From Escherichia coli (GTDB lineage Bacteria > Pseudomonadota > Gammaproteobacteria > Enterobacterales > Enterobacteriaceae): 1,761 nucleotides of DNA. Shown piece by piece: positions 1,443 through 1,761 of this stretch. A model generated the notes under the pieces. That model had not been told where the DNA came from, searched no databases, and worked only from the letters and a program-made list of their open reading frames with translations. The position numbers and the translations under genes were made by a program. The stretch lies in the NCBI RefSeq assembly GCF_003334315.1, contig NZ_QOWR01000113.1, one strand, 5' to 3'. Numbering within the stretch: the first letter of the stretch is position 1; each line of letters opens with the position of its first letter.

Positions 1443-1462
1443 CTCCTTACATAATTAAGGAG
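1443..1462 (+). promoter_or_regulatory. Hairpin pairing an anti-SD (ctcctta, 1443-1449) with the transposase SD (taaggag, 1456-1462); putative translational occlusion element
   Basis: Perfect 7-bp inverted repeat with a 6-nt loop (cataat). The 3' arm is the Shine-Dalgarno of the ATG at 1469. Confidence 0.4.
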
Positions 1463-1468
1463 AACAAA

Positions 1469-1761
1469 ATGGAACTTAAAAAATTGATGGAACATATTTC
1501 TATTATCCCCAATTACAGACAAGCCTGGAAAATGGAACATAAGTTATCGGATATTCTACTGTTGACTATTTGTGCCGTTATTTCTGGTGCAGAAGGCTGG
1601 GAAGATATAGAGGATTTTGGGGAAACACATCCCGATTTTTTGAAGCAATATGGTGATTTTGAAAATGGTATTCCTGTTCACGACACCATTGCCAGAGTTG
1701 TATCCTGTATCAGTCCTGCAAAATTTCACGAGTGCTTTATTAACTGGATGCGTGACTGCCA
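1469..1761 (+). CDS. H-repeat-associated protein / ISAs1-family transposase (YhhI/YdcC/YbfD-like), N-terminal 97 codons; continues beyond the window's right edge
   Basis: ATG 1469 with SD aaggag 6 nt upstream. Translation [97 protein letters not shown] matches the recalled N-terminus of the E. coli H-repeat proteins nearly residue for residue. No stop before the window end. Confidence 0.9.

Follow-up and report, generated by a model that had tools for sequence, protein, structure and literature searches.

A predicted hairpin over the transposase Shine-Dalgarno sequence of an Escherichia coli H-repeat and its counterparts in ISAs1-family leaders

Insertion sequences that conceal a ribosome-binding site

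Hiding the Shine-Dalgarno (SD) sequence in RNA structure is a known strategy by which insertion sequences (IS) avoid translation of transposase from read-through transcripts, with IS10 and IS50 as the precedents. The first-pass annotation of a 1,761-nucleotide (nt) stretch of Escherichia coli DNA (contig NZ_QOWR01000113.1 of assembly GCF_003334315.1, called the window throughout) invoked this strategy for a hairpin in front of a transposase gene, and the appeal to precedent holds, the IS10 case being reproduced by folding. The window is the distal part of an E. coli RhsE locus, and from position 1325 onward it consists of an ISAs1-family insertion sequence, the H-repeat, whose transposase gene ydcC begins at 1469 on the plus strand. 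The hairpin occupies 1443-1462, and its 3' arm is the transposase SD. We lean toward the reading that it serves as a fold-back lock against read-through translation, with the native transcript starting beyond the 5' arm. The evidence comes from folding energies, from covariation of the stem across the ISAs1 family, and from a conserved promoter-like module beside the stem.

Fold-back inhibition is said to have been described for IS10 by Davis, Simons and Kleckner in 1985. The native transposase transcript, RNA-IN, starts at nt 81, 7 nt after the hexamer TCAAAT. In our recomputed fold, IS10 read-through RNA pairs nt 52-61 with nt 102-111, and opening the ribosome-binding site (RBS) costs 8.7 kcal/mol in the read-through RNA versus 3.3 in an RNA starting at nt 81; the IS10 sequence used was verified by a 100% match in plasmid R100. 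The same relation is predicted for the H-repeat, in that transcripts from outside pair the translation start region and the native RNA starts 3' of the 5' partner. The likeness extends to the sequence: TGATCAAAT is identical in IS10 and the H-repeat and in IS10 holds the only GATC near the promoter pIN, a longer string reads CACATGATCAAATAC in E. coli and nearly the same, CATATGATCAAATGG, in IS10, and both elements also have a GATC within the terminal repeat. The Dam site of IS10 overlaps the -10 region of pIN (PMC5006887), and from TGATCAAAT we infer that the pIN -10 has the same TG-n-TC layout with overlapping GATC as the H-repeat motif described below. The geometry differs. The IS10 5' partner (nt 52-61) is found 5' of the -10, and its pairing target, the AUG region, is some 40 nt distant; the H-repeat 5' arm instead sits between the -10 and the predicted +1 and pairs with the SD across a 6-nt loop. 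Nor is an equivalent of the antisense RNA-OUT seen in the H-repeat, where no conserved minus-strand promoter was found in the leader, and the transposases belong to different families, IS4 for IS10 and ISAs1 for the H-repeat.

Read-through transcripts of IS50 are reportedly poorly translated, with secondary structure at the initiation site, in work attributed to Krebs and Reznikoff in 1986 and to Schulz and Reznikoff in 1991. The T1 transposase promoter of IS50 (Tn5) is Dam-sensitive, with GATC in its -10 region (PMC4265352), and the predicted promoter of the H-repeat has GATC in the same place. IS50 differs in its pair of overlapping GATCs, in the inhibitor protein that a second promoter provides, and in its geometry, none of which is seen in the H-repeat. 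Closer in form is IS200, in which a stem-loop of the 5' untranslated region (UTR) sequesters the SD and blocks 30S binding (PMC4513863), directly covering the SD as the H-repeat hairpin does. The IS200 stem-loop (nt 69-138) sits inside a native transcript that starts at about nt 40, and a separate terminator hairpin protects the element from read-through, whereas the H-repeat has its predicted start within the hairpin and has no terminator. ISPpu9 likewise occludes its transposase RBS by mRNA secondary structure (PMC8450116), in a UTR of 245 nt that is opened by an antisense small RNA; nothing comparable was found in the H-repeat. The literature searched, which had older subscription papers outside its reach, holds no description of an SD-hiding hairpin, of Dam control or of a transcription start site for any ISAs1 element, so that a known fold-back trick has apparently gone undocumented for this family.

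The hairpin and its conservation in ISAs1-family leaders

The 5' arm of the hairpin, the anti-SD CTCCTTA, lies at 1443-1449, the loop CATAAT at 1450-1455, and the 3' arm TAAGGAG at 1456-1462, all on the plus strand. That the 2 arms are exact reverse complements separated by a 6-nt loop had been noticed before, and every coordinate given for them is right, as is the identification of TAAGGAG as the SD of the transposase. The stem is followed by 6 nt (aacaaa) and then by the ATG at 1469-1471, the ydcC start in the RefSeq annotation, and the ydcC N-terminus aligns with ISAs1 relatives. RNAfold makes this stem of 7 base pairs (bp) the dominant predicted structure, with the same 7-bp stem and 6-nt loop in the minimum-free-energy and centroid structures at -8.0 kcal/mol. 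In a 61-nt context the fold has z = -2.75 and is equalled by 4 of 200 dinucleotide shuffles; the 26-nt core has z = -5.1, with none of 200 shuffles as stable. The 7-bp repeat alone is unremarkable, since 19 further inverted repeats of 7 nt or more, spaced within 40 nt, occur in the window, most of them made of A and T only. What lies beyond chance is its overlap with the SD together with its covarying conservation in relatives. No Rfam covariance model matches the hairpin region 1430-1470 at E ≤ 1.

How far the stem could matter to a ribosome was calculated from constrained partition functions, as the cost of holding the SD (1456-1462) single-stranded in RNAs with varied 5' ends. For 5' ends at 1250, 1324, 1400, 1430 and 1443 the cost is 7.4-8.5 kcal/mol, and for 5' ends at 1448-1451 it is 1.2 kcal/mol. 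The duplex of the SD with the 3' end of 16S rRNA is predicted at -9.0 kcal/mol. The hairpin can thus cancel most of the SD binding energy, but only if the RNA contains 1443-1449, and by this computation it is stable enough to compete with 30S binding. The proposal that the stem would hide the SD in transcripts entering from outside is borne out by the model, in which the presence of 1443-1449 raises the predicted opening cost from about 1.2 to 7.4-8.5 kcal/mol.

To place the hairpin in its family, we collected 80 ISAs1 loci with 42-96% protein identity from a scan of one genome per species with transposase alignment, and added 9 further loci of intermediate relatives at 66-87%. A stem-loop is found at the same position, in the 45 nt before the start codon, in almost all gammaproteobacterial members, and in about 70 ISAs1-family elements overall, with stems that differ in sequence and remain complementary: CTCCC/GGGAG, TACTCTC/GAGAGTA, ACTGGCT/AGCCAGT, CTGTC/GACAG, TACTTCC/GGAAGTA, CTGCTT/AAGCAG, AGACTCCT/AGGAGTCT and TTATCTT/AAGATAA. 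Distant members that lack the upstream anchor have leader hairpins too, namely ACCTCCA/TGGAGGT and AGCTCCTA/TAGGAGC in Vibrio, CATCCA/TGGATG in Endozoicomonas, CCTTGG/CCAAGG in Syntrophobacteraceae and TCTCCT/AGGAGA in Enterobacter, and several of these include the SD. Within the enterobacterial clade nearest the window, the stem has been rebuilt several times with different sequences, reading CTCCTTA/TAAGGAG in E. coli and E. fergusonii, TCTCCT/AGGAGA in Salmonella and Dickeya, TCTCTT/AAGGAGA with one G.U pair in Citrobacter, TCCATT/AATGGA in Serratia and Raoultella, and TAATTC/GAATTA in Cedecea. The loop is conserved beyond the needs of a hairpin, in a clade-specific way, as TTTT (89-95%) in non-enterobacterial members and as an A-rich sequence (gAAAAtA, CATAAT) in enterobacterial ones; this could reflect the initiation region of a promoter or an Hfq-type site.

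A plain MAFFT alignment could not register the 3' arms, because loop lengths vary, and was replaced by a fixed-register test, whose alignment is independent of structure, and by alignment to a covariance model (CM). By the fixed-register test, stems of 5 bp or more are present in 30 of 38 unique sequences. Stem length averages 5.87, against 4.48 for arms exchanged between sequences and 4.03 after shuffling. The CM was built from 6 gapless seeds and found 34 sites in the loci. On its alignment the paired fraction of cells is 89.4%, against 73.9% after shuffling. Changes on both sides affect 33 cells, against 9.6 after shuffling, and none of 500 shuffles reaches 33. The covariation score of 0.448 compares with 0.168 for shuffles and with no more than 0.113 when partners are slid by 1-3 columns. 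The 3 inner pairs cycle through CG, UA, GC and AU. RNAalifold independently predicts the core pairs and finds compensatory changes in 3 of 4. In terms of energy, the family RBS (-16 to -4) has a median opening energy of 8.1 kcal/mol in native leaders versus 5.4 with shuffled upstream sequence; the native value is above the shuffled one in 58 of 69 loci, with p ≤ 0.05 in 34 of 69. The best match of the family model in the window is 1431-1467, at 10.3 bits and E = 0.06, and the E. coli hairpin is a divergent instance of that model. The pairing is thus conserved with compensatory changes, and the comparison supports the view that the hairpin is a selected RNA structure of the ISAs1-family leader, with the transposase SD as its 3' arm.

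The copies within E. coli follow the same pattern. The stem is kept in the intact copies ydcC, yhhI and that of strain AST240, and in the E. fergusonii copy, and ybfD has C1445T, which still pairs as U.G. Neither SD nor pairing survives in the pseudogene copies ybfL, ybfQ, DX6 and 536 or in the E. albertii copy. The first-pass annotation had named conservation across H-repeat copies as a check on the hairpin, and the complementarity is kept in intact E. coli copies, with compensatory changes in the enterobacterial clade and the ISAs1 family. These data bear on the idea that the 7-bp repeat is an accident, or a relic now idle in the largely immobile H-repeats of E. coli. Such an idea draws on the marginal single-copy statistics, on the many other 7-nt inverted repeats and on the fact that several E. 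coli copies are pseudogenes, but intact copies keep the stem while decayed copies lose it, and the family-wide covariation shows selection, so we consider a chance or relic origin very improbable. As a separate observation on these copies, the K-12 ybfD H-repeat lacks a left terminal inverted repeat of its own, its leader (from about window position 1350) being joined to the right end of the preceding ybfL copy (at about 9948-9972 of locus L092). Many BLAST matches to the leader start at window position 1350 because of this fusion.

A palindrome may also act as DNA, bound by the transposase or a host factor, or as a transcription terminator. The stem is a perfect palindrome beside the motif GTGATCTT, which mirrors the core AAGATCAC of the left terminal repeat, and a scan flagged the minus strand as terminator-like. 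Protein-binding sites, however, conserve their sequence, and here the sequence changes while the pairing is kept; a terminator would want a run of T after the stem on the plus strand, where AACAAAATGG follows instead, and the U-tract on the minus strand, TATTTGAT, is weak and absent in relatives. The hairpin does not qualify as a Rho-independent terminator on either strand, and we give this pair of explanations hardly any credence.

A promoter-like module and the predicted native start

The fold-back reading requires that the element's own RNA begin beyond the anti-SD, and the sequence just 5' of the stem is informative here. We anchored 37 unique leaders on the GATC that precedes the stem. 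Numbered from that anchor, they share a block TTGACC at -21 to -16, a block TGTGATC at -3 to +3 in which T-1, G0 and C3 are invariant, and a block ATACT at +6 to +10, followed by the T-rich loop. The string TG-n-TCnnAT, which has the layout of an extended -10, is invariant or nearly so across these leaders and is kept in the enterobacterial clade; TCnnAT (+2 to +7) lies exactly 17 nt from the -35-like block, which reads TTGACC, TTGACG or TTTACC and matches at 4 or more of 6 positions in most non-enterobacterial members. The enterobacterial clade, the window included, retains only TGn plus TCnnAT. In the window the predicted promoter core is at 1433-1441 on the plus strand, with TG at 1433-1434 and TCAAAT at 1436-1441, and the Dam site GATC at 1434-1437 overlaps both the TG and the hexamer, whose role as a functional -10 is putative.

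Placing +1 by analogy with IS10, 7 nt after TCAAAT, puts it on the 3'-most base of the 5' arm or the first loop base in nearly all members, with 5' UTRs of 16-28 nt. In the window the predicted start is 1448-1451 on the plus strand, T1448 and A1449 being the 7th and 8th nt after TCAAAT, and A1451 applying if AATACT (1439-1444) is the -10. Across the family, use of nATACT as the -10 would move +1 to the junction of loop and 3' arm. With either hexamer the predicted +1 leaves the anti-SD out of the native RNA, so native mRNA would lack the anti-SD that read-through RNA carries. A native start inside or downstream of the 5' arm had been proposed before; the proposal now has a conserved promoter-like module behind it, which predicts +1 at the boundary of arm and loop, and the start itself stands as a prediction.

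The mechanism we favor runs as follows. A transcript from outside the element would carry both arms and fold the hairpin; in the window such a transcript could come from the rhsE genes, which are co-oriented, and from the upstream remnants of IS and intron. The hairpin would charge the ribosome about 6-7 kcal/mol extra to reach the SD, and because of this extra opening cost, read-through RNA should be poorly translated. Native RNA would come from a weak promoter of the element, the extended -10 TG-n-TCAAAT with its overlapping Dam GATC. This promoter adjoins the stem, and RNA from it would begin on the final base of the 5' arm or within the loop (about 1448-1451), giving a native 5' UTR of about 20 nt in which the SD is free. 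It would be fold-back inhibition of the IS10 and IS50 type, done by a compact local stem-loop between the -10 and the SD.

Several points weigh against this reading. The E. coli lineage lacks the -35 of its relatives and has TGTTTT at 1413-1418 instead, so that a native promoter in H-repeats could be very weak or even dead. At -11 the proposed -10 hexamer carries C, where sigma-70 strongly prefers A; the other candidate, nATACT, is canonical, but a 20-nt spacer separates it from the -35. Neither ydcC nor yhhI appears in the published E. coli K-12 transcription start tables that we examined. The stem is short, and an SD as strong as this one (-9.0 kcal/mol) may partly out-compete it. The single-copy statistics are marginal, with 4 of 200 shuffles folding as well, p = 0.07 for RBS opening and 10.3 bits against the family model, and the CM-derived alignment is biased toward the structure that was modeled.

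The principal alternative is constitutive repression of the IS200 type, with the native start 5' of 1443, the hairpin in the normal 5' UTR and translation always low. It explains the hairpin and its covariation equally well, and IS200 and ISPpu9 do exactly this (PMC4513863; PMC8450116). The lack of a convincing -35 for a hairpin-proximal promoter in the E. coli lineage also speaks for it, as do peaks of RpoS holoenzyme in a genomic SELEX (systematic evolution of ligands by exponential enrichment) study, which fall somewhere near or upstream of ydcC and yhhI (K-12 loci L082 and L093) at a resolution too low to place a promoter (PMC5493296). Against it, the sole conserved promoter-like elements in the leader, TTGACC-N17-TGnTCnnAT, put +1 at or after the 5' arm, and among aligned relatives no conserved promoter-like element was found between the left terminal repeat and the TGnTCnnAT motif; a weak candidate, TTGTAC-16-TATGTT at 1353-1380, is broken in Salmonella. 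On balance we think IS200-type repression unlikely, while taking it seriously.

The loop itself offers another promoter, since CATAAT also reads as a -10-like hexamer. With TACACA (1427-1432) as -35 and a spacing of 17 nt to CATAAT (1450-1455), RNA would start at about 1462 as an almost leaderless mRNA without SD, and the palindrome would be incidental. This is the only site in 1300-1520 to pass a sigma-70 consensus scan, with 9 of 12 matches, but one such site is expected by chance (shuffle mean 1.2). The intact copy yhhI has CCTAAT at the loop position and so loses the key A, the loops of relatives are T-rich or A-rich with no -10, and an mRNA starting at 1462 would forgo a conserved SD in perfect position. 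We regard a loop promoter as highly improbable.

Two short reading frames overlap the hairpin. On the plus strand, an upstream open reading frame (ORF) from ATG 1432 to TAA 1456-1458 would encode MIKYSLHN, with a stop that overlaps the SD; it was rejected, having no SD of its own and a frame and stop that are not conserved. On the minus strand, the reverse complement of the 5' arm is a second TAAGGAG, followed after 9 nt by the mini-ORF ATG TGT AAG CAA TAA; this was rejected too, as its ATG needs CATGATC, where most relatives have TGTGATC.

Dam sites, element ends and the RhsE context

The element's left end carries a second Dam site. The left terminal inverted repeat (IRL), CAGGGAAAGATCATCAGAAGTTCA, occupies 1325-1348 on the plus strand, matches the reverse complement of the right end, and contains GATC at 1333-1336. 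It begins CAGGGAAAGATCATC at 1325 and reads CAGGGAAAGATCA from that position; the right end, whose reverse complement is CAGGGCAAGATTACG (CAGGGCAAGATTA), lies just past the ydcC stop codon in the full locus L001. The IRL start, 144 nt 5' of the ydcC ATG, is the boundary to outside sequence. In relatives the terminus CAGGGnAAGATCA lies 72-174 nt 5' of the ATG, and it is also found at the ends of collapsed-IS contigs, which are 1218-1261 bp long. Since the hairpin is 118-137 nt from the left end, it is well inside the element. The assignment to ISAs1 (ISEc5/ISEc1) rests on short terminal inverted repeats that bound an element of about 1.2-1.3 kb, and on a single ORF of about 378 amino acids for a DDE transposase with DDE_Tnp_1_assoc and DDE_Tnp_1 domains; ydcC homologues carry PF13808 and PF01609. 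RefSeq annotates ydcC as an ISAs1-like ISEc5 (H-repeat) DDE transposase at 1469-1761 on the plus strand, the gene continuing beyond the window end.

The GATC beside the stem is conserved in the anchored relatives, C3 at 100% and T2 at 97%. Elements from Enterobacterales, Vibrionales, Aeromonadales and Alteromonadales have both GATCs, the one in the IRL and the one in the -10-like motif, and the 2 are absent together in Halomonadaceae, Marinobacterium, Endozoicomonas and non-gamma hosts (Desulfobulbus, cyanobacteria and others). Their replacements are ACGC in the IRL and TGGTC in Halomonadaceae, AGAGC in the IRL and TGGTC in Marinobacterium, and AATC in the IRL of Endozoicomonas. We take the former hosts to belong to the Dam clade and the latter to be Dam-less. 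The presence of GATC in both the -10 and the IRL suggests that expression and end activity may be tied to Dam methylation and replication. A broader reading, which is possible but toward which we remain somewhat doubtful, is that the ISAs1 leader is one co-evolving module, in which a Dam-gated extended -10, a start within the SD-hiding hairpin and the Dam site of the IRL would together track host methylation. Several GATC-less lineages, with GGTC at the -10, still show structure that occludes the RBS.

A further observation concerns the internal motif GTGATCTT (ATGATCAA in E. coli) at 1431-1441, which is the reverse complement of the IRL core AAGATCAC (AAGATCAT) at 1331-1339. Judging by this resemblance, the transposase may have a second binding site here, one that overlaps the promoter and would permit autoregulation. 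That the IRL core AAGATCAC/GATCAT pairs or co-varies with the internal GTGATCTT/ATGATC found no support, the relation being inconsistent across enterobacterial relatives.

The surroundings bear on what the element has to contend with. The H-repeat transposase has the same orientation as the upstream rhs genes, in the window and in all K-12 H-repeats, and ISAs1 relatives are found within co-oriented polysaccharide operons, which makes read-through into H-repeats a realistic threat. H-repeats and other ISAs1 elements habitually lie inside or just 3' of co-oriented operons that are transcribed, among them rhs toxin loci and clusters for O-antigen or polysaccharide. A built-in RBS lock would explain how the transposase stays silent under constant incoming transcription. 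It would be relevant to how stable rhs and O-antigen loci are, and to the apparent immobility of H-repeats. The proposal is the first explicit testable regulatory model for ISAs1 in that it names a promoter, a start point, a hairpin and Dam sites, and it adds a covariation-supported case of fold-back, more compact than those of IS10 and IS50, which changes no general principle. If the Dam-module reading were true, the prediction for ISAs1 elements, on which there is essentially no experimental record, would be transposition coupled to replication and proof against read-through, as in IS10, and the family would be a natural experiment on how IS regulation adapts to host epigenetics.

The rest of the window is a succession of genes and mobile-element fragments. 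The terminal 204 nt of an IS1 copy in reverse orientation (1-204) interrupt the RHS core gene, whose protein is represented by its C-terminal tip at 205-615; only a handful of strains (H1-H6) have this IS1 insertion, and most other matches begin at 205. Two small abutting plus-strand ORFs, 627-812 and 812-1021, follow 3' of the RHS tip, and a lipoprotein-like signal, MKKYIFLVLFLLCGC, is seen in the former. The annotation here is one 'RHS element protein dsORF-e4' in some genomes and 2 hypothetical proteins in CP53, and the pair may be a frameshifted immunity gene, perhaps broken at the A-run 793-799. Between these ORFs and an intron remnant, an IS1-family transposase fragment with its N-terminus missing is annotated on the minus strand at 1043-1141, further mobile-element debris 5' of the H-repeat. 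The intron remnant is the stretch 1178-1324, which starts GTGTGCC after a first copy (1163-1177) of the 15-nt IRL start CAGGGAAAGATCATC and is closed by the second copy at 1325-1339. Rfam RF01999 (group II intron D1-D4) matches 1247-1351 on the plus strand with 63.5 bits versus a gathering score of 36, E ~ 1e-12, and the stretch resembles what is left of a group II intron, about 145 nt, within an H-repeat end. This segment is unannotated and is present in 2546 of 5426 complete E. coli genomes.

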